A stretch of 64,000 nucleotides of DNA, from positions 32,001-96,000 of IMG/VR virus record IMGVR_UViG_3300032282_006516; one strand, written 5' to 3'. Below, piece by piece: positions 14,772-59,633 of the stretch. Every line of letters starts with the position of its first letter. Within the stretch, counting starts at the first letter, position 1. This stretch comes from a virus. The notes below the pieces were generated by a model. That model saw only the letters and a list, made by a program, of their open reading frames with translations, did no database searches and was not told the origin of the DNA. The position numbers and the translations under genes were made by a program.

Positions 14772-14772
14772 T

Positions 14773-15426
14773 TCAGCTCGCGCCGGGAATCGGGAAGCCG
14801 ACCGCGATGGCTGCCTTCTTGAGACGCTCGTGCTGCGCACGCTCCTCCGCCGAAAGCGTGGTCTCGTCGATGAGACCGTTGCCGCTACGCGCCTGAATCT
14901 CCTCGACCACGCCGGTCTCGGGCGTATCCAGGGTCACGCGCGTTGCCGCATCACGCGCCACGGTGCGCGCATTCAGGTAGTACTCCGCCGTCGCCGCCGC
15001 GTACGCGCGCTGCTCCATCTCGTTGAGCGAACCGGCGTTGCGGTACGCCGAGATGACCGTCGCCGCGGCGTGCTGGCGAACCGTCGACGGGTCATTCGTC
15101 GCGTCGTCCTGCGCAGCCGCCGTCGCCCGACCCGCCTTGACCGCCTTGACCGCCTTCTTCGCGGCCTTGGCCGGCTTCACCGCCTTGGCAGGCTTCGTGG
15201 CCTTAGCGGGCTTCTTTTCCGCCTTGTCAGCCTTGGCCGCCTTGACGGCCTTCTTCACCGCCGGCGCTCCGCCGAAGTGCTTCTCCGCCGTGGTGCGGGC
15301 CTTCTCCTTGTCCGCATCCGACCAATCCGACTTGCCGATGGCACGACGCGCGCCGACGAGACCGGCGTACTTCCCGGCCTTGAGGTTGATGGCGAACTTC
15401 TCCGGGCTGAGCTTCTCGTAGTTCAT
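14773..15426 (-). CDS. Lys/Ala-rich histone H1-like DNA-binding protein
   Basis: Central KKAVKAAKADKAEKKPAKATKPAKAVKPAKAAKKAVKAVKAG repeat; GGAG RBS. Confidence 0.7.
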   Translation of the reverse strand: MNYEKLSPEKFAINLKAGKYAGLVGARRAIGKSDWSDADKEKARTTAEKHFGGAPAVKKAVKAAKADKAEKKPAKATKPAKAVKPAKAAKKAVKAVKAGRATAAAQDDATNDPSTVRQHAAATVISAYRNAGSLNEMEQRAYAAATAEYYLNARTVARDAATRVTLDTPETGVVEEIQARSGNGLIDETTLSAEERAQHERLKKAAIAVGFPIPGAS

Positions 15427-40487: not shown

Positions 40488-40518
40488 GCAATTTTTGTCA
40501 CTATTCGGAGATAAGAAT
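40485..40518 (+). promoter_or_regulatory. Candidate phage promoter, copy 1
   Basis: TAGGCAATTTTTGTCACTATTCGGAGATAAGAAT; 29/34 identical to 41361-41394. Confidence 0.65.
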
Positions 40519-41360: not shown

Positions 41361-41394
41361 TAGGCAACTTTTTTCATTATTCGTGGATAAGAAT
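41361..41394 (+). promoter_or_regulatory. Candidate phage promoter, copy 2
   Basis: TAGGCAACTTTTTTCATTATTCGTGGATAAGAAT followed by a GGAGG RBS. Confidence 0.65.
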
Positions 41395-41572: not shown

Positions 41573-41592
41573 AAGTCCTCCCGAAAGGGGGC

Positions 41593-41615
41593 ACGCGGCC
41601 AACGCCGCGTTTCTT
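41593..41615 (+). terminator. Rho-independent terminator
   Basis: ACGCGGC-caac-GCCGCGT followed by TTCTT, at the convergence with the terminase gene. Confidence 0.65.
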
Positions 41616-41624
41616 AGCCTCTAA

Positions 41625-43469: not shown

Positions 43470-43474
43470 CCGAG

Positions 43475-43795
43475 ATGAAACGTACTGCAAGACCCGATGT
43501 ATTTGTGGGAGAACTTGTCTCTAGTGTGCAGCGCGCTGGTCCGGTTCTCACGGGCCAAACGACACTACAACCAGAGGCAGAGGGTGACGGATACTGCGGA
43601 ACAATGCAGCTCGTGCCGAACGCTTTTCACGCCAACGACTTAGGGCGGCGGGTCAAAGACGCTTTCGTCACGTTTGTTCGCGCGTACTGCCGTACCCAGG
43701 GATGGAGGCTTCGGGAGTTTCGCGTGAAGAAGAACTACGTCGAGTTCGCCATCGCCGCTTCAAGACCCCGGTCGAGTTCCAGCAAGAACCGCTGA
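43475..43795 (+). CDS. Hypothetical protein (start uncertain)
   Basis: Protein-like C-terminal half; fills the gap between minus-strand genes. Confidence 0.4.
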   Translation: MKRTARPDVFVGELVSSVQRAGPVLTGQTTLQPEAEGDGYCGTMQLVPNAFHANDLGRRVKDAFVTFVRAYCRTQGWRLREFRVKKNYVEFAIAASRPRSSSSKNR

Positions 43796-44160
43796 GTGAA
43801 CGCCTCCGGGTCAAGCAGGTGCGAGAACCCGTACGCACGGAGCCACCAGCTCGCCTGCTCTTCGGTGTACGCCGCCTTGAGGCGCGGGTAATCGACCCGG
43901 AAGTAGTCCTTCGCGACGCGCTCCAGAATCGCGGGGAACGTCTCCAACCAGTACGCGCGTGCCTGCGGCAGTTTCTTTACTTCCTCCGTGGGGAAGAAGT
44001 GGAAAACAATGTCGCCGTTGGTCAGAGCAAACTCGGCCAAGAACGTCGTGTAATCCGGAACCTGCGTGAACTCAATCGCAAGAACCGGAAGCTCGGACTC
44101 ACTCTCAAGCGCCGTCGTGGCTTGAGTCGGGTCCATCGTCGTCGAGTTCGTCGTCGTCAT
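43735..44160 (-). CDS. Hypothetical protein
   Basis: 141 aa ORF. Confidence 0.7.
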   Translation of the reverse strand: MTTTNSTTMDPTQATTALESESELPVLAIEFTQVPDYTTFLAEFALTNGDIVFHFFPTEEVKKLPQARAYWLETFPAILERVAKDYFRVDYPRLKAAYTEEQASWWLRAYGFSHLLDPEAFTQRFLLELDRGLEAAMANST

Positions 44161-45073
44161 GGTCGAGGTCCTTCGTCGGTGCGAGGTCCACCGTGTGGTG
44201 CCCCGCGCTCAGTGTGTGAATGGAGGGCACCTCACGAGTGTCCATCCGTAGCGCAATCGCGCGAAGCTGCTCCTGCATCTGGTCTTCCGGCTTAACGACC
44301 ATCTGCAGCATCTCTTCAAAGAGCCGGCTTCCGTTGGCGTAGTTCAGGAACTTCTGGCTGTCGCCCGGGCCGTCCTGGTGAACCGCTTCCGTCGCACGGA
44401 GCGCGGCCATGTCTCGTGCCTCAAGCATGCGCAGCGCAAGCTCTTGCCGCCCCGGGCGAATGCCAAGACGCATCTGCGCCAGCGTTGCCGCCATCGGCGA
44501 GTGGGGCAGGTCCGCACCAATCTTCCGAGCGTCCTTGTAGTACGCCGCTTTGAGAACGGCCTGCTTCCCCTGCAGCTCGGGAACGTGGTCAGCCAGCGTG
44601 TCGATGCGCAGCTGAATCAGCACACGCATCTGCGAGCTGTCGAGCAGGTTCACATTCCAGAAGTAGTGCCGGTACAGCTCCAGCGCCTCGGTCGTGCAGA
44701 ACACGCCGAGATGCCGAGTTAGGTACGCCGAGATGGCGGGCAGCGGCACCTGCACGAGCACCATCGCCTCAACGAACTCCTTGGCCCGGGGAAGGCTAAG
44801 AATCTCAAGGGCCGTCCGCACCGCAAGTTCGCGGTGGAACAGCCCATTGATACGTTCGTTGATGAGGAAATGAAACGACGGCGCGTGGTCCCGGTCGTTC
44901 GGGTAGAACGGCGTCGGCGGCTTGAGCTTGCTGCGGAGCCGGTCGATGTAGGCCTCGGAGATGAAATCGAGGCCTTCGTCGAGCAGTCTCTCTTTGATGT
45001 CCCGCGTCAGGTACTTGTCCGGATGAAGGATCAAGTACTTGATGTAGAACTCCGCCGGACTCCGCAGCCGCAT
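44105..45073 (-). CDS. Hypothetical helical protein (possible packaging-associated protein)
   Basis: 322 aa upstream of terL; function inferred from position only. Confidence 0.65.
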   Translation of the reverse strand: MRLRSPAEFYIKYLILHPDKYLTRDIKERLLDEGLDFISEAYIDRLRSKLKPPTPFYPNDRDHAPSFHFLINERINGLFHRELAVRTALEILSLPRAKEFVEAMVLVQVPLPAISAYLTRHLGVFCTTEALELYRHYFWNVNLLDSSQMRVLIQLRIDTLADHVPELQGKQAVLKAAYYKDARKIGADLPHSPMAATLAQMRLGIRPGRQELALRMLEARDMAALRATEAVHQDGPGDSQKFLNYANGSRLFEEMLQMVVKPEDQMQEQLRAIALRMDTREVPSIHTLSAGHHTVDLAPTKDLDHDDDELDDDGPDSSHDGA

Positions 45074-45074
45074 C

Positions 45075-47333
45075 TCATGCCTTCTGGAACGCCAACACCT
45101 TCAGTCCTTCAAGCACATCCTCTGTCGTGCGAACAGCTTTTTCAAGAGCTGAGACGGGCACGTCGCGAAGACCAAGGCGCGCCGCGAGCAAAAGCTCGCA
45201 CATCTTGAGCTGCGCTTCGTCGATGGCCGGCATGTACGAGATGAACATGCCGACGTTTTCGGGGTTGAGGAAACCCAACGAAAGCACGGTGTCGACAGCC
45301 ATCGGGTCCGGAATGACCGCCGCTTCCTTGACGAGGTCGACCTTGAAAAGCGGCATGTCACGAAGAACACCGGCCGCCGCCGTCTTCGCTTCGTCGAGAC
45401 GCGCGCTGGCCGTCTTGATGTGACGACCAACACGAACCAAGACAGGCGCGCTGAACGCGCTCGCATGGCCGAGCTTCTGCTGCGCGTAGCCCATGTCGAC
45501 GCCGAGCGCGCCGAGCATGAACATCGTGTCGTCGAGCGACAGGAAGTGCTTCTCCGCGCTCGCGAGCTTCTCCACAGGAAACCCGTCGATGGAAAAGCTG
45601 TCCACGCCGCCCGAGCGAATCTGCACCGTCGCCAAAGAAAGCGCTGCCTGCGCCTCCTTGTCGAAGCCGCCCGGGTCGCTCACCAGCGACGTCGGCTCCG
45701 CGTCCCCCAACGGAAGCCACGAGAACGAATCCGGGATGAGCATGTGGTCGCCTTCCGGCGACGGAAGGATGCGCTGGATGTTGGGCTGCACGATGACCTG
45801 CACCTCGCGCCCGTCGAACGTATCCGCATGCAGGATGACACCCCCCTGTTCCGGGGACGCCATCGTCGCCTTGATGTTCATCGGGATGGTGGCTTCGGCC
45901 CGACCATTCGGCAGCAGGTGGTAGAACACACCCATCCCGCGAGGACGACTCTCAAAAAGACCGGCACCGTCGCCCACGCTAACGCCGACAATGTCACCCT
46001 GGACCGCCATCTGGCTGCCGTTGGTGAACAACGACATCGGGAGCGCCTGTCCGTCCACGTCGATGAGATTCGTGAACACGTACCCCACGAGCTGCTTTCC
46101 GTGGTCGTCCTTCACCTTGTAGAGACCGAACTGACTAATCAGCTCCGGCATGTCCTTCTCAGGACTTTGTGCCTCGGGCACACCGTCGTGGCCGACGACC
46201 CCATCACCAAGAGTCATGGTCGCCGCGCCCGTAAGGTCGGCCGCAAGAACCACCTTCTCCCCAAGAAGCCGAAGTGCCTCCCCACGGTCCAGGGCCTTTG
46301 TCTCCGGCAGCCAGCAGTTGTGCGCCGCCGTCTTCAGCGAGTAACCCGAGGCTTCCTTACGAAGCTGGGCCACCGTGGGCTTGAGGTTTTGCAGAGTGGC
46401 ACTCGCGAGTTTGTGCGGACTCGCGGGCTCGTAAGCCGAAAGAATCTTCAGCGCATCGCCCGTGGCAAACCCGTTGACGACGTATTGGGCTTGGAGCCCA
46501 AGGTCGCTGGCGACCTTCTGAAAGAAGGCGCTGTAATCCGACTCATTGATGGTCGGAAGAATGGCTGAGAGAACAGAGGACAGCTTCGTTGCCTTGGAAA
46601 AGGAGCTCATCTTCCCCATGCTGGAGGCCGCATCGAGAAGACCCTTCACCTTCGAGCCGATTCCGCTGGAAGGGCCACGACCGCCGAGGGTGTTCTTGCG
46701 GGAATTCGCCTCGTAGTTGTCGCCATCCGTCATCGCTCCGAAGGGGGTTGGGGACTTCCCCGGAGCGAACGCCTTCTTCTCGGCAGCTTTATACGCCAGG
46801 ATTGCTGAGCCCTGCTTGCCCATGCCGACGTTCATCGTCGCGCCGCCACCGCCGAAGCCGTAGTTCTGGCGGTACGGGGGGTAGAGCTGCCCAATCATCG
46901 ACATGTCGCCGGGGCCACGACCCGTGATGTCGAAAGCCTGCGGACGAAACACGGCTTGACGAAGCCGCGCCTCGGTCAGCGGAAGAACGTGCGAGTCGTC
47001 CGTAACCAGAAGGTCGAGCGGCTGGAGCTTCCGGTCTTTGATGACAATCGGAATACGCGCCGACTTAACGCCCGCCGCGCGCATCGCGTCTTCCGGCGCC
47101 CCGTGCTGAATCTCCGTCTTGTTCTGAATCTCGATGTGCCCGAAGCCGAAGCCGCGCTCCGCATCCACGCGGTCCATCACCACATGGGGCTCGAAGTCCG
47201 CGATGTAAGGAACCTGCTTGAAAAGCTCCTGCATCAGCTCGTTCGGCCACTGATTCGCGTCCTCGGGCATGGTCACCTCGGCGGCGACCTTCTCGAACTG
47301 CACCTGGGGCTCGAAGAACAGCGATTCGGACAT
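45075..47333 (-). CDS. Large hypothetical virion/head-associated protein
   Basis: 752 aa with about 10 K-x-A motifs (FEKVAA, QKVAS, HKLAS, LKTAA, DKEAQ, EKLAS, IKTAS, AKTAA, VKEAA). Confidence 0.7.
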   Translation of the reverse strand: MSESLFFEPQVQFEKVAAEVTMPEDANQWPNELMQELFKQVPYIADFEPHVVMDRVDAERGFGFGHIEIQNKTEIQHGAPEDAMRAAGVKSARIPIVIKDRKLQPLDLLVTDDSHVLPLTEARLRQAVFRPQAFDITGRGPGDMSMIGQLYPPYRQNYGFGGGGATMNVGMGKQGSAILAYKAAEKKAFAPGKSPTPFGAMTDGDNYEANSRKNTLGGRGPSSGIGSKVKGLLDAASSMGKMSSFSKATKLSSVLSAILPTINESDYSAFFQKVASDLGLQAQYVVNGFATGDALKILSAYEPASPHKLASATLQNLKPTVAQLRKEASGYSLKTAAHNCWLPETKALDRGEALRLLGEKVVLAADLTGAATMTLGDGVVGHDGVPEAQSPEKDMPELISQFGLYKVKDDHGKQLVGYVFTNLIDVDGQALPMSLFTNGSQMAVQGDIVGVSVGDGAGLFESRPRGMGVFYHLLPNGRAEATIPMNIKATMASPEQGGVILHADTFDGREVQVIVQPNIQRILPSPEGDHMLIPDSFSWLPLGDAEPTSLVSDPGGFDKEAQAALSLATVQIRSGGVDSFSIDGFPVEKLASAEKHFLSLDDTMFMLGALGVDMGYAQQKLGHASAFSAPVLVRVGRHIKTASARLDEAKTAAAGVLRDMPLFKVDLVKEAAVIPDPMAVDTVLSLGFLNPENVGMFISYMPAIDEAQLKMCELLLAARLGLRDVPVSALEKAVRTTEDVLEGLKVLAFQKA

Positions 47334-47345
47334 GGGACATCTCCT

Positions 47346-48002
47346 CTAGGAAGTCTTGATGATAGCTGACATCGCGATTGAGGCAGAAGGGACCTTCGTC
47401 AGCATGATGACGCCCCAAACCTGTTCGCCTGGATTGATGCCGCCGAGATTAGCCGCCGTCAGCGCCTGGTATTGGTTCCCTGACTCCGCCAGCGTCGTGG
47501 CGTTGTCAAACCCGATGCTAAGAAGCACGCAGGGGCCTGCGCTGAGATTCGCCGTCAAGCTGGCCATCAAATCCACGACCGGAAGTTTGATGGCCAACGC
47601 CGCCTTGATGAGGAAGTTGATTCCTCCGAGTTTGAGCGCGAGTGTTGCGCTAATGGACGCTGCGGCGGAAAGACTTGCGCTAAGAGAGACGGAAATCGCT
47701 GGAAGTCCTATGGACAACCCTAACGATAAAGCGGCTTGAATTGACGCTTGTATCTGCGCAATCGCCGTCAGCTGGAGCTTCAGCGAGGCAAAGGGGTTTG
47801 AGATCGAAATCCCAAACGACAGCTGCAGGTTGATGGCCGCGTTTAGCTGCGCCGAAAGGTCGACGAGCAGCGACCCAAGGCCGAACTGCCCCATCAACAT
47901 AAGGTCGAACTGCACGAGCAACGGAACGACCAAGGACACCGCGCCGTTAAGGCCGATGTTGATACCTCCCAGGGGAAGGCTTCCAACAACGACCGTGCTC
48001 AC
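47346..48002 (-). CDS. Very hydrophobic hypothetical protein
   Basis: 218 aa rich in L/I/S/A; GTGA-coupled to the spike gene. Confidence 0.65.
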   Translation of the reverse strand: MSTVVVGSLPLGGINIGLNGAVSLVVPLLVQFDLMLMGQFGLGSLLVDLSAQLNAAINLQLSFGISISNPFASLKLQLTAIAQIQASIQAALSLGLSIGLPAISVSLSASLSAAASISATLALKLGGINFLIKAALAIKLPVVDLMASLTANLSAGPCVLLSIGFDNATTLAESGNQYQALTAANLGGINPGEQVWGVIMLTKVPSASIAMSAIIKTS

Positions 48003-49237
48003 GCGAGAACCTGTGGGTTCGCCGTGGTGATGCTACCGACGAGCGGAGCCACCGTAGTCACCGTACAGGCAATCGGTGCGTTCGGAACAGGCGGCGAGGA
48101 GAACGTAATCAAGGCCGGGGCGGCGATGAGGTTCATTGAAACAATGTCCCCCAAACGCGCCACTCCAGACTGCCCCGTCCCAAGGCGCACGATGTCGCCC
48201 TTCACGTGCGTGTAGTTTCCACCTGAGATGTCGAAACCATTCTTCGCGACGAAGTTGATGGTGTCGTCCGTCTTCAGCGTGATGGCTTCCGTTACTTCGA
48301 TGTTGAGCTTCTTCTTCACCCGCACGAAGAAGTTTCCCTCGGTGCGCAACACCGTGTTGCCCTTACGGTCGAACACAAACTTCAGCACGGACGTATCGCC
48401 GGTCGAGCTTGAAGCCATGTCACCGTTCTGCGCGACGAAGCCCTTGGGGCTGACGGTCACCTCGTAGACGATGGGGTTGCTCCCCTGCCCGTCATCTCCT
48501 TCGGCAACACCCGCAGCAACGAGAAGTGCCGGGTCCGGCTCCGGGATGGGGTTGTAGACCTTGCCGACCGCTACACGAATGTCCGCGTACTGGTCGGTCG
48601 CGAAAACCCGAAACGTCTGCAGGTACTGGCTCGGGTACTGGTCGAGAGACGGCCCGTCCTGCAGCCCCCACACAATCGACCCGTTCGAGTTGTGGTGCTC
48701 GTAGTTTTCGCTGATGTCCGTCATCAAGTTCCGAAGCGGGATGAACAGACGCTGCGACAGCTCCGTGGCACCAATCTGAAGAACTCCGCCACGATGAAGA
48801 ATGACGAAGTTATTGTCCCGCGTGCGCAGGACAATGTCTCCCGCTTTTACCCGAGGACGATTTCCCGCGAACGACGCATCCGTGGGATGAAGCGGCTGGC
48901 TACCGTGAGGACTGGTTCCGGACGGCGCATCCGGCGACGAGTCATTTACCGTCTGCACAGGCATGAGGAACGCCATAACAAACGGCGCCGTGCTGTCGGA
49001 CGGGATGCAGACCATGCACGTCGACCCGATTTCAGGCACGACGTAGAGCCCCTCCCCGTTGTTCGGGTTCTGATACGGGGACGCTACCTGGACCTGGAAG
49101 TACTTCTTCCGGTCGAACTGCGCCACGACGTCGACCGTCCACTTCACCAAGTTCACGCCTACAACGCGCCCCTGGACCACCTCGGCCGGGTCTGCCCCGG
49201 CCTTGTGCGTGAACGAGTTCCGGAACTTGGTCGTCAT
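47999..49237 (-). CDS. Baseplate central spike (gpV/gp5-like)
   Basis: OB-fold-like GRVVGVN...GEGLYVVPEIGSTCMV; beta-helix-like region; apex VARLGD...GSITT. Confidence 0.7.
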   Translation of the reverse strand: MTTKFRNSFTHKAGADPAEVVQGRVVGVNLVKWTVDVVAQFDRKKYFQVQVASPYQNPNNGEGLYVVPEIGSTCMVCIPSDSTAPFVMAFLMPVQTVNDSSPDAPSGTSPHGSQPLHPTDASFAGNRPRVKAGDIVLRTRDNNFVILHRGGVLQIGATELSQRLFIPLRNLMTDISENYEHHNSNGSIVWGLQDGPSLDQYPSQYLQTFRVFATDQYADIRVAVGKVYNPIPEPDPALLVAAGVAEGDDGQGSNPIVYEVTVSPKGFVAQNGDMASSSTGDTSVLKFVFDRKGNTVLRTEGNFFVRVKKKLNIEVTEAITLKTDDTINFVAKNGFDISGGNYTHVKGDIVRLGTGQSGVARLGDIVSMNLIAAPALITFSSPPVPNAPIACTVTTVAPLVGSITTANPQVLA

Positions 49238-49240: not shown

Positions 49241-52200
49241 TCAGTAGTGATGTCCCGGTACATTCTTCAGATGCTCGCGTCCAGGCTGAAGTGATTGCTT
49301 CTGCGTCAGGCCAAACTCAGCGCCGAACACAACACCCGGAATGGGGTGCGTACCGTGGATGTGGGAAACCTCGCCAAGAGCAGCCGCATCCGCCAGGGTG
49401 GTGCGCAGCCTTTGATGCTGCAACTTCGCCATCCAGTCCTCTTGCAGCTCTAGTGGCATTACCGAAATACCCTTAAGCACCGGCTTGTGCTCGATGGGCT
49501 GAAGCCCCTGCTTAACAAGGTTCTGATTCATCCGATTCACAACGGACAGCGGACGGTACTCACCGCGAAGAACGCTGTCGTGGTCACCGGGATGCACGAT
49601 CTCGGTCAGGTTACCCATGGCCTTGATAACCGTCTCCACGTGCCGGCGCTTGATGCCTTCCTTCTCATAAAGACCGTAAATCTCGTTCGCCAGATGGTGC
49701 TGAACCTTGTCCATCGAACCCGTCGCTTCGTACAGGCGGTGCGGGTTCAGGATTGTTCGATTCGGGTCCGACAGGTGGTCGCCGGCCTCGACCTTGGCGC
49801 CAACCACGGGCGGGTTCCAGTGCGTGTACCCCGCCACGGCTTCGGCGTTCGGCAGATTCTGGTGAAGCGGAAGACCGCCAGCGTCCTTACCGACGTGGTG
49901 TTTGCGGTTTCCGATAAACACGTCCACGCCAGTCGTCGTCGGCTCAATCTTGGTGATGGTGCCGCTCGTCATCGCAAGAGACGACTCGTTCGGGAGCTTT
50001 TGTGGCAGCGACATGAGCTGCTCAAACCGTGCGAACGAGTTCAGAATCTTCGAGCCGTGCTGCTCTCCGACGCCGCCGGTGTGGAAGCTCTTGAGCGTGA
50101 GCTGGATGGCGCGTTCGCCAACGGCATGCGCCGAGTGGACACCGATGTTCGTACCGAGGGCATACGGGTGCCCGCCCGAGTCCAAGCCCGAGCACTTCTG
50201 GCAGATGCCCTTCTCGCTCTCGCACTTGAGCGGGGAGCGCACCACGATTTTCGCGTCCTTCTTTGCCGCCCGAATCTTTCCCACAACGTCGGGGGTAAGA
50301 AGTGTGCCGGCCGGAAGATGAAGGCTACCGTGCGTGAAATCTTGCTGCAGATGCCGGTCATGCACGTCGCGCTCGTTGATGTGTAGCGCGATGCCCTTGT
50401 CCGTGCCGCAGTCGTGTTCGTTCACCGTCAAGTGCATCATGTTGTTCATGAGCAGCTTGGACATGTACCCCGGCTCCTGAACCTCCTGCACCTTCATGAC
50501 CGAGCCGCGACGAGCGCCGTGCATCTGCGTCCAGTACCCGCCGACATCAAGCCCTTCGGCGTAGCTCTTGGTGACCGGAGTGGGAATCTTCCGGTCCATC
50601 GAGTCTTTGTAAATCATCGGAGCGAGAACCATCTGCTTGTACTGGTCCCACCCCGGCTTCACACCGGCCTTGTACATGGTGAAGAGGTTCGTCGGATTCT
50701 TCTCCAGCTTGGCCTCGTGCAGCGCACGCATGTCGCGTTCCGCCTTCTCGTAAACCGTCACGGCCTGGTGATCCTTCTCCGACTGCGACAGCCCCGGTTT
50801 GGCGTAAATCGCCGTCACCTTTTTGTGTGCTTCGTCGAGAGCCTGTGCCCGCGCTTGGCGGTCAGGAGTAAAGTCCTCCAACGACAACGTGTGTGCACCG
50901 ACCGGAACAAAGACACCCTTTGTTTCGGTTGCAACGGGTGTCTTACCCACGGTCTTGGTCAAATCAAACGGATGCCCTGCGCTCGCAGACCGAGGGAGAG
51001 AGACCGAGCCGAACGCCATGCCGTTGCCCAGGTCTTTCAGCTGATTGACCGCAGTTCCGTACTCCGGAGTGTGGTCCTTCGCGATACGCGTGAGCAGGTT
51101 GTTGAGACCTGACTTGTCGATATGATAGTCCATCTTGTGCAGCACATCCTGCTGCATCCCGCTCGGCACGGCGCTCGCCATGAGAATACGACCCGCTGTG
51201 GTCGGCTTTCCGTTGAGATGCACGATGTCGTTGACGTGCAGGGTGCCCTTGCGTACCGCCTCAACGGCTTCGCCAGGATGCTTGACGGACTTACCTGAAT
51301 CCTTCCCAACCAACGACAACTTATAGAGCCCGAGTGCGCTTTCCAAGGTCGGCTGGTACATGACCTGCCCCGTCGCTTCGCTGAACAGGTTGTTCGACGG
51401 AAACATTTTGTGTGCCTCCGCCACAGCCTCACGCGTGATCGGGACGTACGCGCTCATCGTGTCGCCGTCGAAATCGGCGTTGAAGCCACCCGTGACGAGC
51501 GGGTGAATCTTGATGGCGTTGCCTTCGACTGGCTTCGGCTTAAACGCCTGGACACTGTACTTGTGCAGCGCCGGGTCGCGCTTGAGCAGCACCGGGCGCT
51601 CTTCCATCACCTTATCGAGCGCACGCCACACCGCAGGCGTTTGTTTTGAGATGAGCGCAGGACCCTGAAGCTCATTTTGAATAGCACCCATGTCCTTGAG
51701 CTTCCTCACGACAAACGGGCGGTACAGGTCAAGCGCCGCATTCTTGGGCAAGCCCACTTCGTCCAGACCCAATGCCGGCTCAGGGACAATCGTAGACCGC
51801 ATGGTCATGTCCTGACGCCGGTTAACGAGTACATCCTGGAAGTAGCCGTTCTTCGGAGAACTACCGGCAACCTGATGCAGCAAGCCCTTGTGCTTGGCGT
51901 CGGCGTACGACGTTCCCAAGCCAATAATCGCCTTCACACCGTCGTAGTAATCCTGGCGCAGAGATTTCTTGTTCTCGTCCAGGGTGTGCCGGGCCAGAGT
52001 CGGATTCTTCAGTTGATCGTTGACCTTGGCGAAGTCCGAATACAACTGGTTGATGTCCGCGAACTTCAACGCGCCGCTCGGCATCGTCGACACCGGGCGC
52101 ATGACCGGCGGAATGACCGGGATATTGTGAAGGATGTAGGCTTCGCTCGGCTTCATGTCGAGATCCTTCAAGGCGCGAAGGTACTTCACCTTCTTGAGCG

Positions 52201-55200
52201 TCTTGTCGATCTCTTGCGTCTTCGCCGTTTGCAGCGCCTTCTCCGCTTTGGGCAGTTCCTTTGCTACGTCGATGCGGTCCAGGAGGAGCTTGATACCGGC
52301 ACCACCCGTCACCCCGGCCTTAGTGTCCGTAAGACCGCCATTCGCGGCAACGCCCTTTTCGCCGTGAATGACCGCCGTGAAGTCTTTAGCGGACAGACCC
52401 GTTAGATGCCGAATCGGCGCCTCAAACAAAGGATTCGGAAGCGGCTCGGCAAGCCCAATCCGCGTCCACTGACGACCGCCGTGCCCACCGGTCAGGTGCT
52501 CATCGAACAAGCCGCCCGGCTTCGGCATGGGGTCGCCGTTCTTGTCCGTCTTCGACAGCAGCAAATCGGCCGGATTAGGCAACTCTTTCTTTGCCAGCTG
52601 TTTGATGTGCGCGTCCGTCAGAGGAGAAAGAACAAGGTCATGCCCCTTCTTCTCGATGTTGATTCCAGACCCTTTCAGCATGTCGGTGAACTTCTGAAAG
52701 GCAAATGTCGGCTTGGGCGTCGGTAGAGGCCCACCCGTTTGAATCGCTGCCCAAATCTTGTCGTGGTCCGAAGGCCAGCGTTTTGCCGGATTCGTTTGTG
52801 CGTCCGGGCCTTCCGCCTTGTACGTCTGCATCTCGCGGATGTTCGCCGTCGCACCGTGCGCCAACAGCGCGTAGAGGCCGAGCGTACCCATCGACTGTCC
52901 GCCCGTTCCCGAGCCACTAGCCGGCTGAAGGTTCAGGTCGTACGTCTCGTGCGCCCCGCCCGGCAAGTTCATACCAGACCGCACCGAGAGCTTCTTCTCA
53001 ACCTGATGCACGAGCTTGAGGTGGTGCTGCGGCCCCACCATGACCTTGCCGAGGGGCTGCTTCGTCACCGGGTCGAACAGTTCCTCTGTATCCGTCAAAC
53101 CGTGCGCTTTGAGGTCCGCGCGCACCTTTCCCAACGCATCCGTGTTTGGCTCAAAGTTCTTGACGATGTAGGGCTTGCCCGTCTTCTCGACGATTTTCCC
53201 CGCAGCAGTTTCAAGCAACTGACCGACGTTCATACGGCCCGGAACACCCGAAGGGTTGAGCGCAACCTCGATGTGCTTACCGTCTTTCGTGTGCGGCATC
53301 TCCTGGTCCGGGAGGATCATCGTGACGATGCCCTTGTTGCCGTACCGACCCGCCATCTTGTCGCCGACCTGCATCGGCTCGATGGTCCGTACGTGCACCG
53401 CGAGACCGTCCTTGCCCTTATGTACCCCGACAACCTCTCCGGGGAACTCACTGTCCCAACGAAGGCTCTTGTCCGTGTGCGCTCCGCTCATGCTGCGGCG
53501 GATGGCGGCCAAACCAGTGCGGTCTTTGATGTTGTACGGCTTCATGGCCGCGATCAAAGGGTCACCCGGATGAACCGTCTGTCCGATTCTCACCACGCCC
53601 GAATCGTCGAGCTTTTCCAGCTGTTCCTTCTTGAATACTCCTGGATGTTCAAGATGAAACTTCTTCTTGTTTAGAACAAGGTCATCATCAAGCGGGATAG
53701 CGTTCTTCTGAAGGTGTGCGCTGGAGAGCTTCTGCGCCGCGCTTTCCGAGATGACGATTCCGTCCTCAAAGTTGTAGCCCTTGAACGGGATGTACGCCGT
53801 GCGGAGGTTGGTTCCGAGGGCCAATACGCCGTTCCGCGCGTAGTTCGTGTCCGCGATAACCTGGCCGCTTGTCACCTTGTCGCCAACCTTGACCAGAGGC
53901 GTCGAGTGCAACACGCCCTTGGCATCGTTGAGCGGGTAGTTGTTGTAGAGCTGCACTTCGTGGTGCTGGCCCTTGGCGTCTTGAAGAACGACCGCGTCTT
54001 TCTTCAGTTCAACCACTTTTCCGCTCACGGGTGCTTGGTGCGATGCCTGCTTACCGAGCAGCGCCTCGAACGTAGGCGTGCTTTGCATCCCCGTGCCCAC
54101 CTGCACCAGCGGGGCTTGCCGGTGTACGAGCGAAATCGCCTGTTCCATCTGGCGGCTCGCCATTGATGCACGACCGCCGCTCGTGTTCCCAAGGAACGGA
54201 ACGAGGTTCGAGGTCATATTGAAAAGCTGCCAAGCGTGGGGCATCGCGTACTGCGCATCCGACACCTTGCCGTCACGAATCGCCGTACCGGCGCTCATGC
54301 GAACGGTGTCGTGTAGGGGCTTTGGCGTGCCGCCTTCCCAGCGAATCTGGTCCGGGAGAATGATGTTGGAAGTCGCGAACTTGGTTGGCGACACCATCTC
54401 CATCGCATTCGTCTTGAGGTTGTAAAGGCGAATCTTTGCCTCGTTTCCCTCTTTACGAACCCCAAGCGGCAGCCGCAGCGTCACGCCCGTCTTCGCACCC
54501 TCAGGCGTATTGATGGGGTCGAGATACCCGAGATGGCTCGGGTTGACGAACTTCGCCTCGTCTTCGATGCTGCGCTCGCTCTTAATGCCGCCCGTACCCA
54601 TGATGGTCGTCTGCATCGCGGACGAGACCATTTCGACGGGATTGATTTGCGTAGCAACGCGTGCCGCGCTGTTCTTATGAAACACGTCCCTGACGGGCGT
54701 GTTGAACATGTCGAACTTGATGATTTCGCGAATGTCTTTCGCTCCATCAATTTTACGTGCCGTCTTTGCTCGAACCGTTCGTCCGGCCTCGCGCAGCTTG
54801 TCGAAGGCGTAGTCACCCGTCGTACGCAAGTCCTTGAACACGAGCGAGTCCCGGTCATCTTCGGGATGACCGACGCTGACTTTCAAAAGTTTTTCTGTGG
54901 CGAGCTTCAACGTGTCTCCCGTCACATGAGAGAACGGCTTGCCGAGTGTAATCTCCGTCGCATCCGGACGAAGGTTTGACGCGCCCATGACCTGATGGAA
55001 ATGCGCTGCCGCTTCTTCTTTGCTCGGTGCAGCGGTCTTCTTGGAGGTCTTGTAGAACGCCTCCAGGGCCGTGTTGACGCCACGTGCGTTCTTATTGGCG
55101 TCGAGGACTTCTTTTCCCCACGCCTTTTCCAGCTCACCGTCACTAACGCCGAGCGTCTTCAAAAACGGGTACAGCGGCAGCGACGCCTTGCTCGACCCAT

Positions 55201-55675
55201 ACTGCATCGAGAAGGTCTTTTTGGCCGGGTCGAACACCGTATCAAACGCACGCGCGCCCTTGCCCGTGACGTTGAAGTGGTTCTCCAGCTCACCGTTCGG
55301 CCGGCGCCGCGAATAGACACCGGACTTGAGCTGCCACTGGTTATCGACCTGATACTCCTGCCCATCAAGAATGTAACTGTACCGACTCGTCGTCAGCGGC
55401 AGCTCGGCGATGCGCACGCGGCGTTGGTCCACAGCCGCGCCGGTGTTTTTGTCCTTAAGCGTGAGGTGCGCGTAAACCGGCGCCGCCCATGAGTCACCGG
55501 CTACTTTTGCTGCATGTTGCCCGCGAAGGTCGTCAGGGTGCTTGAGCTTCGACACCTCTAGCTTGTCCAAATGAAGCGTCTGCGTTTTCCCTTCGAGCGG
55601 GAAATGCGCACGAATTCCCTCCAAGACACGGTCCTGGAGATGCTGGGCGGCTTCGTTGGGGTCGAGGTAGGCCAT
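49241..55675 (-). CDS. rpoBC: Single-chain DNA-directed RNA polymerase, beta-beta' fusion
   Basis: beta: TPEGAKTG, GYNFEDGIVISE, GDKMAGRYGNKG, NPSGVPGRMNVGQ. beta': PVIPPVMRP, FNADFDGD, HGARRG bridge helix, QLTLKSFHTGG trigger loop; no stop between the halves. Confidence 0.97.
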   Translation of the reverse strand: MAYLDPNEAAQHLQDRVLEGIRAHFPLEGKTQTLHLDKLEVSKLKHPDDLRGQHAAKVAGDSWAAPVYAHLTLKDKNTGAAVDQRRVRIAELPLTTSRYSYILDGQEYQVDNQWQLKSGVYSRRRPNGELENHFNVTGKGARAFDTVFDPAKKTFSMQYGSSKASLPLYPFLKTLGVSDGELEKAWGKEVLDANKNARGVNTALEAFYKTSKKTAAPSKEEAAAHFHQVMGASNLRPDATEITLGKPFSHVTGDTLKLATEKLLKVSVGHPEDDRDSLVFKDLRTTGDYAFDKLREAGRTVRAKTARKIDGAKDIREIIKFDMFNTPVRDVFHKNSAARVATQINPVEMVSSAMQTTIMGTGGIKSERSIEDEAKFVNPSHLGYLDPINTPEGAKTGVTLRLPLGVRKEGNEAKIRLYNLKTNAMEMVSPTKFATSNIILPDQIRWEGGTPKPLHDTVRMSAGTAIRDGKVSDAQYAMPHAWQLFNMTSNLVPFLGNTSGGRASMASRQMEQAISLVHRQAPLVQVGTGMQSTPTFEALLGKQASHQAPVSGKVVELKKDAVVLQDAKGQHHEVQLYNNYPLNDAKGVLHSTPLVKVGDKVTSGQVIADTNYARNGVLALGTNLRTAYIPFKGYNFEDGIVISESAAQKLSSAHLQKNAIPLDDDLVLNKKKFHLEHPGVFKKEQLEKLDDSGVVRIGQTVHPGDPLIAAMKPYNIKDRTGLAAIRRSMSGAHTDKSLRWDSEFPGEVVGVHKGKDGLAVHVRTIEPMQVGDKMAGRYGNKGIVTMILPDQEMPHTKDGKHIEVALNPSGVPGRMNVGQLLETAAGKIVEKTGKPYIVKNFEPNTDALGKVRADLKAHGLTDTEELFDPVTKQPLGKVMVGPQHHLKLVHQVEKKLSVRSGMNLPGGAHETYDLNLQPASGSGTGGQSMGTLGLYALLAHGATANIREMQTYKAEGPDAQTNPAKRWPSDHDKIWAAIQTGGPLPTPKPTFAFQKFTDMLKGSGINIEKKGHDLVLSPLTDAHIKQLAKKELPNPADLLLSKTDKNGDPMPKPGGLFDEHLTGGHGGRQWTRIGLAEPLPNPLFEAPIRHLTGLSAKDFTAVIHGEKGVAANGGLTDTKAGVTGGAGIKLLLDRIDVAKELPKAEKALQTAKTQEIDKTLKKVKYLRALKDLDMKPSEAYILHNIPVIPPVMRPVSTMPSGALKFADINQLYSDFAKVNDQLKNPTLARHTLDENKKSLRQDYYDGVKAIIGLGTSYADAKHKGLLHQVAGSSPKNGYFQDVLVNRRQDMTMRSTIVPEPALGLDEVGLPKNAALDLYRPFVVRKLKDMGAIQNELQGPALISKQTPAVWRALDKVMEERPVLLKRDPALHKYSVQAFKPKPVEGNAIKIHPLVTGGFNADFDGDTMSAYVPITREAVAEAHKMFPSNNLFSEATGQVMYQPTLESALGLYKLSLVGKDSGKSVKHPGEAVEAVRKGTLHVNDIVHLNGKPTTAGRILMASAVPSGMQQDVLHKMDYHIDKSGLNNLLTRIAKDHTPEYGTAVNQLKDLGNGMAFGSVSLPRSASAGHPFDLTKTVGKTPVATETKGVFVPVGAHTLSLEDFTPDRQARAQALDEAHKKVTAIYAKPGLSQSEKDHQAVTVYEKAERDMRALHEAKLEKNPTNLFTMYKAGVKPGWDQYKQMVLAPMIYKDSMDRKIPTPVTKSYAEGLDVGGYWTQMHGARRGSVMKVQEVQEPGYMSKLLMNNMMHLTVNEHDCGTDKGIALHINERDVHDRHLQQDFTHGSLHLPAGTLLTPDVVGKIRAAKKDAKIVVRSPLKCESEKGICQKCSGLDSGGHPYALGTNIGVHSAHAVGERAIQLTLKSFHTGGVGEQHGSKILNSFARFEQLMSLPQKLPNESSLAMTSGTITKIEPTTTGVDVFIGNRKHHVGKDAGGLPLHQNLPNAEAVAGYTHWNPPVVGAKVEAGDHLSDPNRTILNPHRLYEATGSMDKVQHHLANEIYGLYEKEGIKRRHVETVIKAMGNLTEIVHPGDHDSVLRGEYRPLSVVNRMNQNLVKQGLQPIEHKPVLKGISVMPLELQEDWMAKLQHQRLRTTLADAAALGEVSHIHGTHPIPGVVFGAEFGLTQKQSLQPGREHLKNVPGHHY

Positions 55676-55734
55676 GGGCGTTTGCAGCGTACCGCGCCCA
55701 CTAGAACACGTGCAAGGTTCCGCCCAAGTCGGGG

Positions 55735-55741
55735 ATAAGAA
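55735..55741 (+). promoter_or_regulatory. ATAAGAA core motif
   Basis: GGGGATAAGAA in the divergent gap upstream of the plus-strand island. Confidence 0.45.
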
Positions 55742-55778
55742 CTATGAGGCGCCGCATTTGCGCCTCAAGGAGACGACT

Positions 55779-55880
55779 ATGAGCGAAGAAGAAAACCAAG
55801 GAAATCGTTTTCAGGGTGACATCGACGACCTCTTCGAATTTGACGCCCCGTTCTTCGACGAAGAACCGGATAGCGAATGA
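55779..55880 (+). CDS. Small acidic peptide, 33 aa
   Basis: AAGGAG RBS; MSEEENQGNRFQGDIDDLFEFDAPFFDEEPDSE; ATGA coupling to the next ORF. Confidence 0.65.
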   Translation: MSEEENQGNRFQGDIDDLFEFDAPFFDEEPDSE

Positions 55881-55984
55881 AAACATTCTGGTTGTTTTTC
55901 GTAGCAGGTGCCTTGAACGGCATTCTGCTCTGGATTCGAGAACACATGAGCACGAGGAATGATCCTCAACCCGTATCGGGATAG
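55877..55984 (+). CDS. Small membrane peptide, 35 aa
   Basis: MKTFWLFFVAGALNGILLWIR; not in the ORF track; ATGA-coupled. Confidence 0.5.
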   Translation: MKTFWLFFVAGALNGILLWIREHMSTRNDPQPVSG

Positions 55985-56549
55985 GGTCACGGCACTCCCA
56001 GGGACTCGGATACTGGAAGCCCTCACCGGGGTGGAAGGTGTCCGGGTCCCGGACCCTCAGAACATGTTTCGCATGTGGGAGGTGCAGACGCTGTATCTGC
56101 CCATCGCGGGACGCGCGCTCGGAGGAATCCGAGCCAAACTGGTTGACCAGAAAGGTTTTGTTACCTTCTGCAATCAAAGGGATTTGGAAGTTCTTCTGGG
56201 ATTCGGAACACCGGGCAGTTTCTGCCCGTGGTCCGGAACAAGATACGTGAGTCCCGACGACTCAGAATGGTTTGGGTTCTGCTGCGATGAAGAGGATCTT
56301 CGCGACGACTTGTTCGAGCGCGAGATGTTTCTCCGAGCGCAGACACCAGGCGGAGTGCTCATCTCCGCGCCGGGGTTTGACCTGACGCGGCGCATCCACA
56401 TCAGCGCCACGTACGACGCGGAGGAAGTCTTCGTCTTTCTCCAGGACATGGACCCCGAGACGGGCTTCTTCCCGGACACCCGTTTCGAGACGCTCGAAAG
56501 GAGGTGGGCACGCTCAGAAAGGGAGCGTATTCGATGGGAACGTATTTGA
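55959..56549 (+). CDS. Hypothetical protein
   Basis: 196 aa. Confidence 0.65.
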   Translation: MILNPYRDRVTALPGTRILEALTGVEGVRVPDPQNMFRMWEVQTLYLPIAGRALGGIRAKLVDQKGFVTFCNQRDLEVLLGFGTPGSFCPWSGTRYVSPDDSEWFGFCCDEEDLRDDLFEREMFLRAQTPGGVLISAPGFDLTRRIHISATYDAEEVFVFLQDMDPETGFFPDTRFETLERRWARSERERIRWERI

Positions 56550-57110: not shown

Positions 57111-58265
57111 ATGCTCGAAGATGTACTTTCGGTTGTTCTCCTCACTCCCATGGACGACCCCGCGGATCCCACCTGCCGGTGGGGCGCACCCACGCTCTTC
57201 TGGGGTCCACCCGGCATCGGCAAGTCCGGACGGGTCGAGGCCGCCGGGGCGGCCGTCGACCTGCCCGTCGAGACCCTCTACCTCAGCACTCTCCAGCCCG
57301 AGGACCTCTCGGGCATCCCGATGCCGACCAAGAAGGGTGAAGTCGAAAACGTCTGCTCGTTGCCCCAGGTCCGGGGCCTCACCGCCGCCGGCAAGGGCAT
57401 CCTATTCCTAGACGAGCTGACCACGGCGCGCCCCGCAGTGCAGGGTGCCGGTCTCGGTGTCGTCTACAACAGGGTCGTCGCCGGCAAGCGGCTCCCGGGC
57501 CGCGTCCGTGTCATCGCCGCGGCTAACCCGCCGGAGGAGGCCGCAGGCGGGTGGGGGCTCGCCCCGCCCATGGCAAACCGGCTCCTGCACCTCGACATTA
57601 CGCCCCCTACCGGCGAAGAGTGGGCGGCATGGCTGCTGTCGGGAAGCGAGAAAACGCCTCCCATCGAAGCGGGAGAAAAGAAGGTCATTGAAGGTTGGGG
57701 GTCGGCGTGGCCCAAATACCAGGGGCTTGGCGCCGGTTTTGCCCGGCGTAACGCGAGCGCGCTCTACAAGCTGCCCCCCGAGGGTAGCAAGAACCGGGGA
57801 AAGGCATGGCCCAGCCCTCGGTCGTGGGAGGTGGCGCTCCGCGCCATGGCCACCGCCGAAGCGCTCGGCAAGCGCCCGCTTCAGCTCCGGCTCCTCGCCG
57901 CTTCGTGTGGTGAGGCCGTGACCAAGGAGTGGGCCGAGTGGGTGGCTTACGCCAACCTCCCGGACCCGGAGGACGCACTCAAGAACAACTGGAAGCCGGA
58001 CCCGCGTCGGCTGGACGTCGCGTTCGCGGTCTACGGCGCTGCCATCGCCTTCGCGCTGGGCAAGAAAGACAAGAACTACGCAATCATGGCGTGGAAGCTC
58101 CTCCAGGGGGGCATCGACGCCGGGCTGCCGGACCTGGCACTGGCGCCGGCAACGGCGCTCGTTCGCGGCGGATGGGGCACAAAAGACCCCGCGGTGGCGG
58201 CGGTGTGCAGGCCCGTCATCGCGTTGTTCGGCGAGACGGGCCTCGCCAACTTCGTGGGGCGATGA
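57111..58265 (+). CDS. MoxR-family AAA+ ATPase
   Basis: WGPPGIGKS Walker A, ILFLDEL Walker B, IAAANP, LAPPMANRL, PSPRSWE. Confidence 0.92.
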   Translation: MLEDVLSVVLLTPMDDPADPTCRWGAPTLFWGPPGIGKSGRVEAAGAAVDLPVETLYLSTLQPEDLSGIPMPTKKGEVENVCSLPQVRGLTAAGKGILFLDELTTARPAVQGAGLGVVYNRVVAGKRLPGRVRVIAAANPPEEAAGGWGLAPPMANRLLHLDITPPTGEEWAAWLLSGSEKTPPIEAGEKKVIEGWGSAWPKYQGLGAGFARRNASALYKLPPEGSKNRGKAWPSPRSWEVALRAMATAEALGKRPLQLRLLAASCGEAVTKEWAEWVAYANLPDPEDALKNNWKPDPRRLDVAFAVYGAAIAFALGKKDKNYAIMAWKLLQGGIDAGLPDLALAPATALVRGGWGTKDPAVAAVCRPVIALFGETGLANFVGR

Positions 58266-59569
58266 GTCACCATGTGAAGATGGCCTCTGCACGGGCGTAC
58301 GTCCTGCAGAAGGCGCCGTACTTTTCCAGCGCGGTCTACGCGCTGGTCCCCAAACCCATGCCGGGAATCAAGACGATGCTCGTGACCAAGCAACTGGTCA
58401 TGGGCTACGACCCGGCCTGGGCGGAGCGGGCAACAGTGGAGGAACTCGGCGCCGACATCGCGCATGAGGTCAACCACTTCTTGCGCCACCATTTCGAGCG
58501 GGCCGGGAAGTGCGACCCATCGCTGTGGAACATCGCGGGCGACCTCGCCATCAACCCCAACCTGCGCAACGCGGGTTGGCAGTTGGCGAAGGACGCCATC
58601 TTTCCGGAGAGTTTCAACCTTCCGGAGGGCAAGTCCGCGGAGGAGTATTACCAGCTCCTCCGCAACGCGCAACTGCAACAGCCTCAGTTGCAGGACGCCC
58701 CCAAACAGGGCGAAAAGCCGCAACCGCCGCAACCCGAAGGAGGCCCCGAGGAACAGGACGGCGGAGGGCAACCCATGTCCCCACCACCTCCCGCGGTGCC
58801 GAAACCAGGCACCGGTCGGTGCGGTTCCATCGGGGGACACAGCGACCCCGAAATCGAAAAAGCACTGGAGAAGGAAGAAGGCCTCGGGCGCGACCCCGCA
58901 GAAATGCAGGGCATCGCCCAGAGGACACTTCACGACGTCAAAGAGCACGCGGCAAAACACGGCCGCGGGTCGGTTCCGGGAGACCTCCTGGAGCACCTCA
59001 AAGCGTTTGAGGAAGTGAGCAAGGTTCACTGGAAGGACCTGCTCGCGCACATCATTCGCGACGCAACGGGACGCTTCCAAGCAGGCGGGGATGATTTCTC
59101 GCTACGCCGACCATCGAAGCGTTCCTGCACACGCGGCTTCTTACGGCCTGGGCTCATCGAGCACCTGCCGGAAGTTGCCATTGTCCGGGACACGTCCGGG
59201 AGCATGGGGCAGAAACAACTCGCGGATGCAACGCGCGAGGCGTACGCCATCATGCAGGCGCTCAGTATCGAGGAGGTCTGGTTCGCCGATGCGGACACCG
59301 CCCTCGCGATGCCGTGGCGCCGAGTCGGCGGACAGTTCTTCAAGACGCTTACCGAAGCCAAGGGACGAGGCGGAACAGACTTCCAGCCCGCAATCGACAG
59401 CGCGCTGACACTTCAGCCGCGTCCCAACGTGATTGTGTACGTGACCGACGGCGACGGCTCGGTGGCGGAGTTTCCGCCGCCTGATGTCGAAGTCGTCTGG
59501 GTCATCGTGCCCAGCTACTACAAGAAGCCCCCTGCTACGTGGGGGAAAACGGTCTTCGTAGAAGACTAA
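58262..59569 (+). CDS. VWA-domain protein with N-terminal HExxH metallopeptidase-like domain (DUF2201-like)
   Basis: IAHEVNH, WNIAGDLAIN, DTSGSM MIDAS, GRGGTDF, YVTDG. Confidence 0.9.
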   Translation: MSHHVKMASARAYVLQKAPYFSSAVYALVPKPMPGIKTMLVTKQLVMGYDPAWAERATVEELGADIAHEVNHFLRHHFERAGKCDPSLWNIAGDLAINPNLRNAGWQLAKDAIFPESFNLPEGKSAEEYYQLLRNAQLQQPQLQDAPKQGEKPQPPQPEGGPEEQDGGGQPMSPPPPAVPKPGTGRCGSIGGHSDPEIEKALEKEEGLGRDPAEMQGIAQRTLHDVKEHAAKHGRGSVPGDLLEHLKAFEEVSKVHWKDLLAHIIRDATGRFQAGGDDFSLRRPSKRSCTRGFLRPGLIEHLPEVAIVRDTSGSMGQKQLADATREAYAIMQALSIEEVWFADADTALAMPWRRVGGQFFKTLTEAKGRGGTDFQPAIDSALTLQPRPNVIVYVTDGDGSVAEFPPPDVEVVWVIVPSYYKKPPATWGKTVFVED

Positions 59570-59598: not shown

Positions 59599-59626
59599 AC
59601 TCATCAATTAGCTCCTCATTCTAGGA

Positions 59627-59633
59627 ATAAGAA
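59627..59633 (+). promoter_or_regulatory. ATAAGAA core motif
   Basis: GGAATAAGAA followed by GAGGAGG RBS and GTG. Confidence 0.5.

Follow-up and report, generated by a model that had tools for sequence, protein, structure and literature searches.

A single-chain, bacterial-type RNA polymerase gene among the virion genes of an uncultured phage, and its probable phage-encoded sigma factor

The DNA considered here is a stretch of 64,000 nucleotides (nt), referred to as the window, which covers positions 32,001 to 96,000 of the IMG/VR virus record IMGVR_UViG_3300032282_006516, a linear viral contig of 121,428 bp with a CheckV completeness of ~65% from an uncultured phage whose genome measures about 190 kb. 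On the minus strand of the window, at 49241-55675, lies a gene for a protein of 2144 amino acids (aa) in which counterparts of both large subunits of the bacterial RNA polymerase (RNAP), beta and beta', are joined in one chain. A sequence-only reading, made from the letters and their translations, had taken this gene for an RpoB-RpoC fusion embedded in the virion gene module and possibly packaged in the particle. The gene, its family, its likely partners and the published virion data on a cultured relative point to a probably sigma-dependent polymerase that would be delivered with the virion. Positions given below are those of the window, unless they are marked as genome positions, which are those of the contig.

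The fused polymerase gene and its family

The open reading frame (ORF) of the polymerase (P0001) is intact, from its ATG to the stop codon at 49241-49243, and its Pfam matches follow each other in the expected order, Rpb2_3 and Rpb2_6 falling within aa 340-900 and Rpb1_1, Rpb1_2 and Rpb1_5 within aa 1143-2032. Four of these domains pass the curated Pfam cut-offs (with E values of 1e-61 for Rpb2_6 and 1e-26 for Rpb1_2), Rpb1_1 staying below its own (29.5 vs 39.7 bits). A family profile was built from 40 members, and the Salmonella RpoB and RpoC proteins were aligned to it (hmmsearch/hmmalign), E. coli numbering being used for bacterial residues. According to this alignment, the RpoB-like part comprises aa 1-1010 (52646-55675) and the RpoC-like part aa 1011-2144 (49244-52645); beta runs up to its C-terminal ...GINIEKK at aa 1010 and the N-terminus of beta' comes right after it, without a linker, which places the fusion junction at about nt 52645. 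The single chain of RpoB followed by RpoC and the junction near 52650 had both been read correctly from the sequence, and the shortfall against E. coli beta and beta' together (1342+1407), estimated there at about 600 aa, comes to 605 aa. This deficit is explained by the parts that are missing: betaSI1 with part of the lobe (E. coli 230-423), betaSI2 (933-1047) and residues 1167-1208 in beta, and the zinc-binding domain (C70/C72/C85/C88), beta'SI3 (948-1131) and the tail beyond residue 1347 in beta'. At the site of the zinc-binding domain (52421-52489, minus strand) only a short Gly-rich joint without Cys is left, and the 40 family members each have one Cys at most there, so the loss is a property of the clade.

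The catalytic equipment, by comparison with E. coli, is complete. The Mg-binding motif NADFDGD (aa 1399-1405; 51461-51481, minus strand) is the most conserved block of the family (0.86), and the beta active-site lysine motif GDKMAGRYGNKG, which corresponds to the K1065/K1073 motif of E. coli, is found at aa ~770-781, in a region where 13 out of 26 residues are those of E. coli. A flap-tip-like segment is present at aa 709-735 of the beta part. The beta' part keeps the lid, the clamp helices, the bridge helix and the trigger loop with its catalytic His (H936), all in the bacterial order (for the C-terminal arm of the trigger loop, by visual inspection only), as well as the second, four-Cys zinc site. 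It is near-certain that the 2144-aa protein is an active phage RNAP. The equivalent of rifampicin cluster I has strongly diverged (3 of 27 residues identical, with D516, H526, S531 and R529 all replaced), and insensitivity to rifampicin is predicted from this region, in which the alignment is weak.

The family to which the enzyme belongs is very large and evidently under purifying selection, to judge from its sequences. More than 120 clusters of full-length homologues (2120-2170 aa, 57-74% identity), on contigs of up to about 200 kb, came up in a word-indexed search; when aa 1-1100 were compared with 1.84 billion representatives, the best 150 matches (representatives at 50% identity) were all of the same type, with E values of 1e-197 or better. 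The same layout occurs on viral contigs of 165-200 kb in more than 150 protein clusters (50% identity), and 75 loci in IMG/VR carry a homologue. The order portal, RNAP, spike, 218-aa gene, 752-aa gene, 322-aa gene, 141-aa gene and large terminase (TerL) is kept in dozens of loci, over RNAP identities of 39-74%. The link with the following gene, which encodes a protein of 412 aa resembling the central spike of the baseplate (47999-49237, minus strand), is particularly close: its start at 49237 lies 3 nt after the RNAP stop, and among 60 loci the stop and start codons overlap (TGATG/TAATG) in 30 and lie 3 nt apart in 10 more. The tight coupling to the spike gene and the setting among virion genes, as first read, thus stand.

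Bacterial beta or beta' subunits are only 26-34% identical to the phage enzyme. In a FastTree phylogeny on 1712 conserved columns, the phage enzymes group together on one long stem, and one chromosomal homologue, that of Pendulispora rubella (P0097), is deeply nested among them; the tree includes four bacterial references only and does not cover the full tree of life of RNAPs. Among 401 sampled Myxococcota genomes, the gene was found in a single one, a metagenome-assembled genome (MAG) holding a binned phage contig.

The Pendulispora homologue (LVJ94_35230) is a protein of 2045 aa with 61% identity, encoded in a 13.6-Mb myxobacterial chromosome, and a phage-type sigma gene (P0380, LVJ94_35385) lies 31 locus tags away from it. 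Two further matches were found in Myxococcota MAGs. Taken together, these matches provide a clue to the host, the chromosomal copy being possibly a prophage-like remnant.

Many homologues are longer, from 2400 to 4700 aa (P0013, P0028, P0051, P0125-P0157 and others; loci L049-L053, L061, L064 and L073). Inserts of ~170-250 aa recur in them at positions equivalent to aa ~405, 545, 755, 960, 1360, 1575 and 1945 of P0001; some contain LAGLIDADG_3 intein domains, and others fall at the hot spots of lineage-specific insertions in bacteria. The portal and TerL of relatives are likewise enlarged. Furthermore, the deposited 'phage' collection includes host contigs of Staphylococcus, Enterococcus, Listeria, Salmonella and Acinetobacter, with rpoBC beside ribosomal protein genes, and such mislabelled contigs can mimic phage RNAP matches.

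The closest cultured relatives are Salmonella phage Arash (gp206 + gp216; OQ632216) and the Vibrio phages D69, D181 and D148, with 32-34% identity over 93% of the length. Their genomes measure about 180-195 kb, a portal gene lies next to or near the RNAP genes, the sigma factor (gp10) and an SNF2 helicase are orthologous, and the beta-beta' fusion is shared, Arash gp206 aligning to aa 17-1482 and hence across the junction at aa 1010. In these phages, however, beta' is split into a piece of about 1525 aa (beta and the first third of beta') and one of about 606 aa, the break corresponding to residues ~545-636 of E. coli beta' and the pieces being separated by small genes, a homing endonuclease or nine genes, whereas the enzyme described here is one chain. 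Split and single-chain forms are sister clades in the tree. Since the fusion is common to both and the bacterial beta' is unsplit, the break is most simply regarded as secondary. The Arash paper annotates the RNAP genes and lists them in the virion proteome, without analysis of the enzyme (PMC10585845).

Sigma factor, helicase and promoter-like elements

The absence of alpha, omega and sigma genes from the window, stated in the sequence-only reading, holds for the window as such; for sigma it does not extend to the genome. A gene for a sigma-70-family factor of 265 aa (P0274) is located at genome positions 7940-8737 on the minus strand, 23 kb before the window, and its identity is established by Pfam, by fold and by homology with Arash. 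It is the orthologue of Arash gp10 (37% identity, E 2e-25), and Pfam Sigma70_r3 is matched above the cut-off (3e-13), region 4 weakly and region 2 not at all in the Pfam search. Its sequence matches in the PDB span regions 2 to 3 with SigA/RpoD and, with RpoS, extend through region 4. The AlphaFold2 model (mean predicted local distance difference test, pLDDT, of 85) shows three helical modules in the layout sigma2-sigma3-linker-sigma4, with a disordered stretch resembling region 3.2 at residues 166-187, and the top Foldseek matches in the PDB are all sigma factors, over the full length and with probability 1.0. P0274 is therefore a true sigma-70-family factor.

The 143 homologues of this factor are in many cases encoded on the same large contigs as the RNAP, and a sigma of this type is present in all four relatives that are 100% complete (186-196 kb, two of them with terminal repeats, one RNAP each). 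No match to alpha (PF01000) or omega (PF01192) was found in the contig or in these four relatives, and the RNAP may use the alpha or omega of the host. A second sigma, of the region 2 type, exists in Arash (gp196), in D69 and in two out of five relatives; it was not found on the present, ~65%-complete contig.

An SNF2 helicase, orthologous to Arash gp217 (35% identity, E 1e-82; also recognized by Pfam), is encoded outside the window in the same locus as the sigma factor, at genome positions 12475-14826 (minus strand). In Arash, gp217 follows the gene for the C-terminal beta' piece, and in a subclade with 39-44% identity the helicase sits inside the RNAP block. The sigma and helicase genes share a minus-strand block with homologues of the Arash virion proteins gp6 and gp8; the helicase and several of its neighbours carry the tag FxDELxKIA, and the sigma factor starts with a short leader ending in K-A-A-S.

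Since the genome encodes a sigma-70-family factor, promoter recognition, the mechanism of which the sequence-only reading had called not established for the caudoviral lineages with such polymerases, is probably sigma-based. That the RNAP works with this phage sigma is likely, from their joint occurrence and from the structural elements that the enzyme keeps.

A motif with the geometry of a bipartite promoter of the sigma-70 type has been identified in the contig. The pattern AA-N19-ATAAG occurs 15 times, against 0.2 expected by Markov resampling, and at every one of the 15 sites an NTG follows exactly 4 nt downstream (+5), the background being 4.3% per position; the extended consensus of this class-1 motif is gCAAg-N~17-GGnATAAGAA-N3-TG. 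It mostly precedes small or non-structural genes and is conserved in relatives. In the window, the plus-strand motif scan gave sites at 40490-40515, 41366-41391, 55714-55739 and 59606-59631; outside it, sites lie at genome positions 3647, 13216, 23095, 97627, 102482 and 119166, and six more between 27809 and 29849, that is, clustered within 2 kb at 27.8-29.9 kb. The class-1 motif is the best candidate for the promoters that would be read by the phage RNAP and its sigma. In the split-form phages the strict pattern is scarce, and two similar TATAAGAAAC sites are found in D69. The conserved NTG was also considered as the start codon of leaderless genes in every case; this was rejected because many such frames have only 9-15 codons and are followed by a GGAGG.

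One of the class-1 sites is placed just upstream of the polymerase gene. The sequence GCAA-N19-ATAAG-N4-ATG, at 55712-55746 on the plus strand, lies 39 nt from the RNAP ATG and is oriented away from it; a hairpin, a strong Shine-Dalgarno sequence and two tiny ORFs come after it. With the strict pattern, 15 of 33 relatives have such a site at a distance of 28-87 nt before the RNAP start, and it is visible in all 18 that were aligned. On the strand of the RNAP itself, another promoter-like element extends over 55686-55715: TTGCAC (55710-55715) and TACGCT (55686-55691) are separated by an 18-nt spacer, the latter lying 10 nt before the ATG. The element is unique in the contig, and the -10-like part (GgGTAnnCT / TATACT, here TACGCT) is conserved in 18 relatives, 6-30 nt before the RNAP ATG.

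A second over-represented element, class 2, consists of TnAGAGGCTAAGAAA with GC-rich hairpins behind it. It sits directly after the stop codon in minus-strand structural genes, TerL among them, and shares the TAAGAA core of the class-1 motif. It is seen at ~41605-41617 (minus strand) and at genome positions 23301, 30359, 31073 and 118005. Directly after the TerL stop, the stretch 41590-41625 (minus strand) holds the form TTAGAGGCTAAGAAA with a GC hairpin, which is probably a second regulatory site or marks where the transcription unit ends; the element as such may act as terminator, processing site or late promoter. A scan for sigma-70 consensus promoters and terminators over the RNAP-TerL block gave no more matches than chance.

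Known phage polymerases, packaging and rival explanations

Several phage polymerases of the multisubunit type have been described, and the present one differs from each. The sequence-only reading had mentioned caudoviral lineages with multisubunit-type RNAP that are known from metagenomes. The published group of this kind, mReC, consists of metagenomic tailed phages whose beta and beta' are alignable to the cellular enzymes and branch apart from Bacteria (Weinheimer & Aylward 2020, PMC7481178), but these have separate genes for beta (about 1000-1400 aa) and beta' (about 900-1100 aa), some of them in two sets, as well as a capsid of family PF07068 (Gp23-type) and a terminase of family PF03237; here there is one chain, no PF07068 match and a terminase of the GpA type. 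Membership of mReC was consequently rejected on gene layout and on the capsid and terminase families; cultured relatives of the enzyme do exist, in Arash and Vibrio phage D69. Sigma factors, packaging or fusion are not discussed for mReC in that work (PMC7481178).

The original comparison, the distinction from the split enzymes of phiKZ and from the single-chain enzyme of crAss-like phages, proved sound, on account of the single chain, the sigma factor and the strong Pfam matches. The polymerases of the phiKZ/AR9 type share with the present one the two-barrel architecture without alpha or omega; one of their sets is packaged and injected, and a helicase of the SNF2 type is genomically linked to their RNAP genes (PMC7824862). 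They are nevertheless composed of 4-5 polypeptides in two paralogous sets and have no sigma, promoters being recognised by a non-homologous fifth subunit (gp68 / gp226), in contrast to the one chain, one set per genome and true sigma-70-family factor found here. The crAss-like gp66 and YonO are also single polypeptides with both barrels, and gp66 is packaged in the virion, but both are too divergent for the beta and beta' profiles (PMC7481178), while the present enzyme is detected by Pfam and keeps most of the bacterial structural elements. In the reviews of jumbo-phage transcription, phages that encode an RNAP have no sigma and those that encode a sigma have no RNAP (PMC7824862, PMC7598289), and searches of the literature turned up no account of the single-chain form, or of a phage that combines such a bacterial-type RNAP with a sigma of its own.

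The evidence on packaging comes from the virions of Arash, analysed by mass spectrometry (PMC10585845). Gp206 (beta and the N-terminal part of beta') gave 128 unique peptides, the most of any protein, and was accompanied by gp216 (the C-terminal part of beta'; 40), the SNF2 helicase gp217 (38) and the sigma factor gp10 (24), compared with 30 for the capsid protein, 32 for the portal and mostly 2-14 for ribonucleotide reductases, ligases and similar enzymes; TerL and the DNA polymerase are absent from the table (PMC10585845). This suggests that the Arash enzyme is packaged. By homology and gene position, the polymerase described here is somewhat more likely than not to be virion-delivered.

The preferred reading, to which slightly better than even confidence is given, is that of a sigma-dependent, virion-delivered, single-chain phage RNAP. 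The chain would assemble without the platform of an alpha dimer and pair with the 265-aa phage sigma to recognise phage promoters, for which the class-1 motif is the best candidate. It would be made together with the spike and the other particle genes, and packed, with the sigma and the SNF2 helicase, into the virion; delivered with the DNA, it would then start early transcription independently of the host enzyme.

A number of points weigh against this. The protein carries neither the FxDELxKIA tag nor an enrichment in K-x-A, and in this sense shows no packaging signal. The identity to Arash is only 34%, and the enzyme of that phage is split; as 116 of about 270 Arash proteins were called virion proteins, carry-over is possible, and is allowed for by the authors (PMC10585845). 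The element upstream of the RNAP resembles an ordinary TAnnnT -10 box, so that the gene may be transcribed early by the host RNAP, and the contig is only about 65% complete. As to the sigma, the clamp-helix residues R275, E295 and A302, which bind sigma70 in E. coli, are not kept, and the clamp helices and flap tip are no more conserved than the rest of the protein and therefore lend no extra support to a contact. For these reasons, the contact between sigma and core is put forward here as an inference.

Some of these points would fit a polymerase that is not carried by the virion. The host RNAP would transcribe its gene from the sigmaA-like element, and the enzyme would take over middle or late transcription, its position among particle genes being historical. 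T7 RNAP and the non-virion RNAP of phiKZ are takeover polymerases of this kind. The conserved -10-like element, with TTGCAC 18 nt upstream of it in this phage, the lack of a packaging tag or of enriched cleavage motifs and the possible carry-over in the Arash proteome are what would be expected in that case. Nevertheless, the conserved coupling to the spike gene and the common orientation with particle genes argue for late co-expression, the Arash enzyme heads the virion proteome by unique peptides in a table that does not include TerL and DNA polymerase, each genome has a single RNAP, and the genes of the sigma and SNF2 partners are inside a module of virion proteins. An enzyme of this non-virion type is unlikely, if by no means negligible as an explanation.

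A mixed system is still less probable, indeed rather improbable. In such a system, the phage sigma or sigmas would redirect the host core, and the RNAP would initiate by means of an unidentified factor or without any factor, as in the phiKZ/AR9 type. The reprogramming of host core by phage sigmas is a textbook case (T4 gp55, SPO1 gp28), the residues of the clamp helices that contact sigma70 are not conserved in the phage enzyme, and some relatives have a second sigma, of the region 2 type. Yet the sigma with region 3 co-occurs with the RNAP in four of four complete genomes and in Arash, it is detected alongside the RNAP in Arash virions, and the lid, clamp helices and flap-tip-like segment are all kept. 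The RNAP-encoding phages known before have no sigma (PMC7824862, PMC7598289), and the retention of both in this lineage suggests that they work jointly.

Fused rpoBC genes also exist in some bacteria, such as Helicobacter and Wolbachia, where one ORF links the C-terminus of beta to the N-terminus of beta'. These cellular proteins share with the present one the joined arrangement, but they are chromosomal housekeeping enzymes that work with alpha, omega, a zinc-binding domain and the sigmas of the host, whereas the polymerase described here is viral, has no zinc-binding domain and is 26-34% identical to the bacterial enzymes. A chimeric assembly, or a cellular rpoBC gene that was captured and has no phage-specific role, for which such fusions and the copy in the Pendulispora chromosome could be invoked, is extremely improbable given that low identity to any bacterial beta or beta', the common synteny of the 75 IMG/VR loci and hundreds of protein clusters, the one positive in 401 Myxococcota genomes (itself a binned phage contig) and the place of the Pendulispora copy inside the phage clade, 31 genes from a phage sigma. 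A chimera is excluded by the shared synteny of hundreds of viral homologues and by the nesting of the chromosomal copy within the phage clade, and with it the nesting in a bacterial rpoBC clade with chromosomal context that the first reading had named as the result that would overturn it.

If the sigma-dependent, virion-delivered reading is pursued further, the lineage would represent the first self-contained sigma-dependent viral transcription machine, with a single-chain core without alpha and omega, a dedicated packaged sigma and an SNF2 helicase that would all enter with the DNA, bipartite promoters of its own (gCAA-N~17-GGnATAAGAA) and a second, non-packaged sigma that would switch this core or that of the host to later genes. 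This extension is tentative, and judged somewhat less likely than not.

The known phage RNAPs of the multisubunit type either have many subunits and are independent of sigma (phiKZ, AR9) or have diverged beyond recognition (crAss gp66, YonO), whereas this lineage joins a compact single chain, alignable residue by residue to bacterial beta and beta', with a true sigma. The layout is common to hundreds of related phages and is barely described in print, the Arash enzyme being the nearest described case. If active, it would be a natural two-polypeptide holoenzyme of the bacterial type without alpha, omega and the zinc-binding domain, which would help to ask what purpose these parts serve, and it could be used as a minimal orthogonal transcription tool. 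Moreover, it would add a new case of the delivery of a large enzyme through a phage tail. Sigma use and packaging can be tested directly in the cultured relatives, Arash and Vibrio phage D69.

Neighbouring genes of the polymerase block

The label of spike for the 412-aa gene is reasonable, because a weak Pfam match to Phage_base_V was obtained and the domains Phage_base_V, Gp5_OB, Phage_spike and Apex are found in the atlas clusters nearest to it; a single-sequence AlphaFold model of this protein, made without an alignment, reached a pLDDT of only 32. It is followed on the same strand by a 218-aa gene (47346-48002; called from its ORF and from synteny) and by the 752-aa, 322-aa and 141-aa genes that lead to TerL (together 41625-47333), an arrangement supported by synteny conserved in dozens of loci. 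TerL itself (41625-43490, minus strand) is recognized by a PHROG terminase match (6e-51) and by Pfam GpA_ATPase, and the major capsid protein gene is located further down. Upstream of the RNAP, at a distance of 4.5 kb, the minus strand encodes the portal, of 681 aa (60155-62200), with 31-34% identity to Arash gp204 and D69_0259 (E 1e-88 to 1e-98), both of which directly precede the RNAP in their phages.

Upstream of the polymerase, two tiny plus-strand ORFs read from the sequence (55779-55987) follow a strong AAGGAG Shine-Dalgarno sequence; they encode a very acidic peptide of 33 aa and an overlapping hydrophobic one of 36 aa, and are candidate early host-takeover peptides. A GC-frame plot over 55700-56250 is ambiguous between the strands. 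A minus-strand ORF of 158 aa in the same place (55701-56177) is doubtful in view of these tiny ORFs, the Shine-Dalgarno sequence and the promoter motif, which leaves the RNAP as the opening gene of its block. A plus-strand gene at 57929-59569, situated between the RNAP and the portal, encodes a DUF2201 metallopeptidase-like protein with a VWA domain, and its position is kept in most of the relatives.

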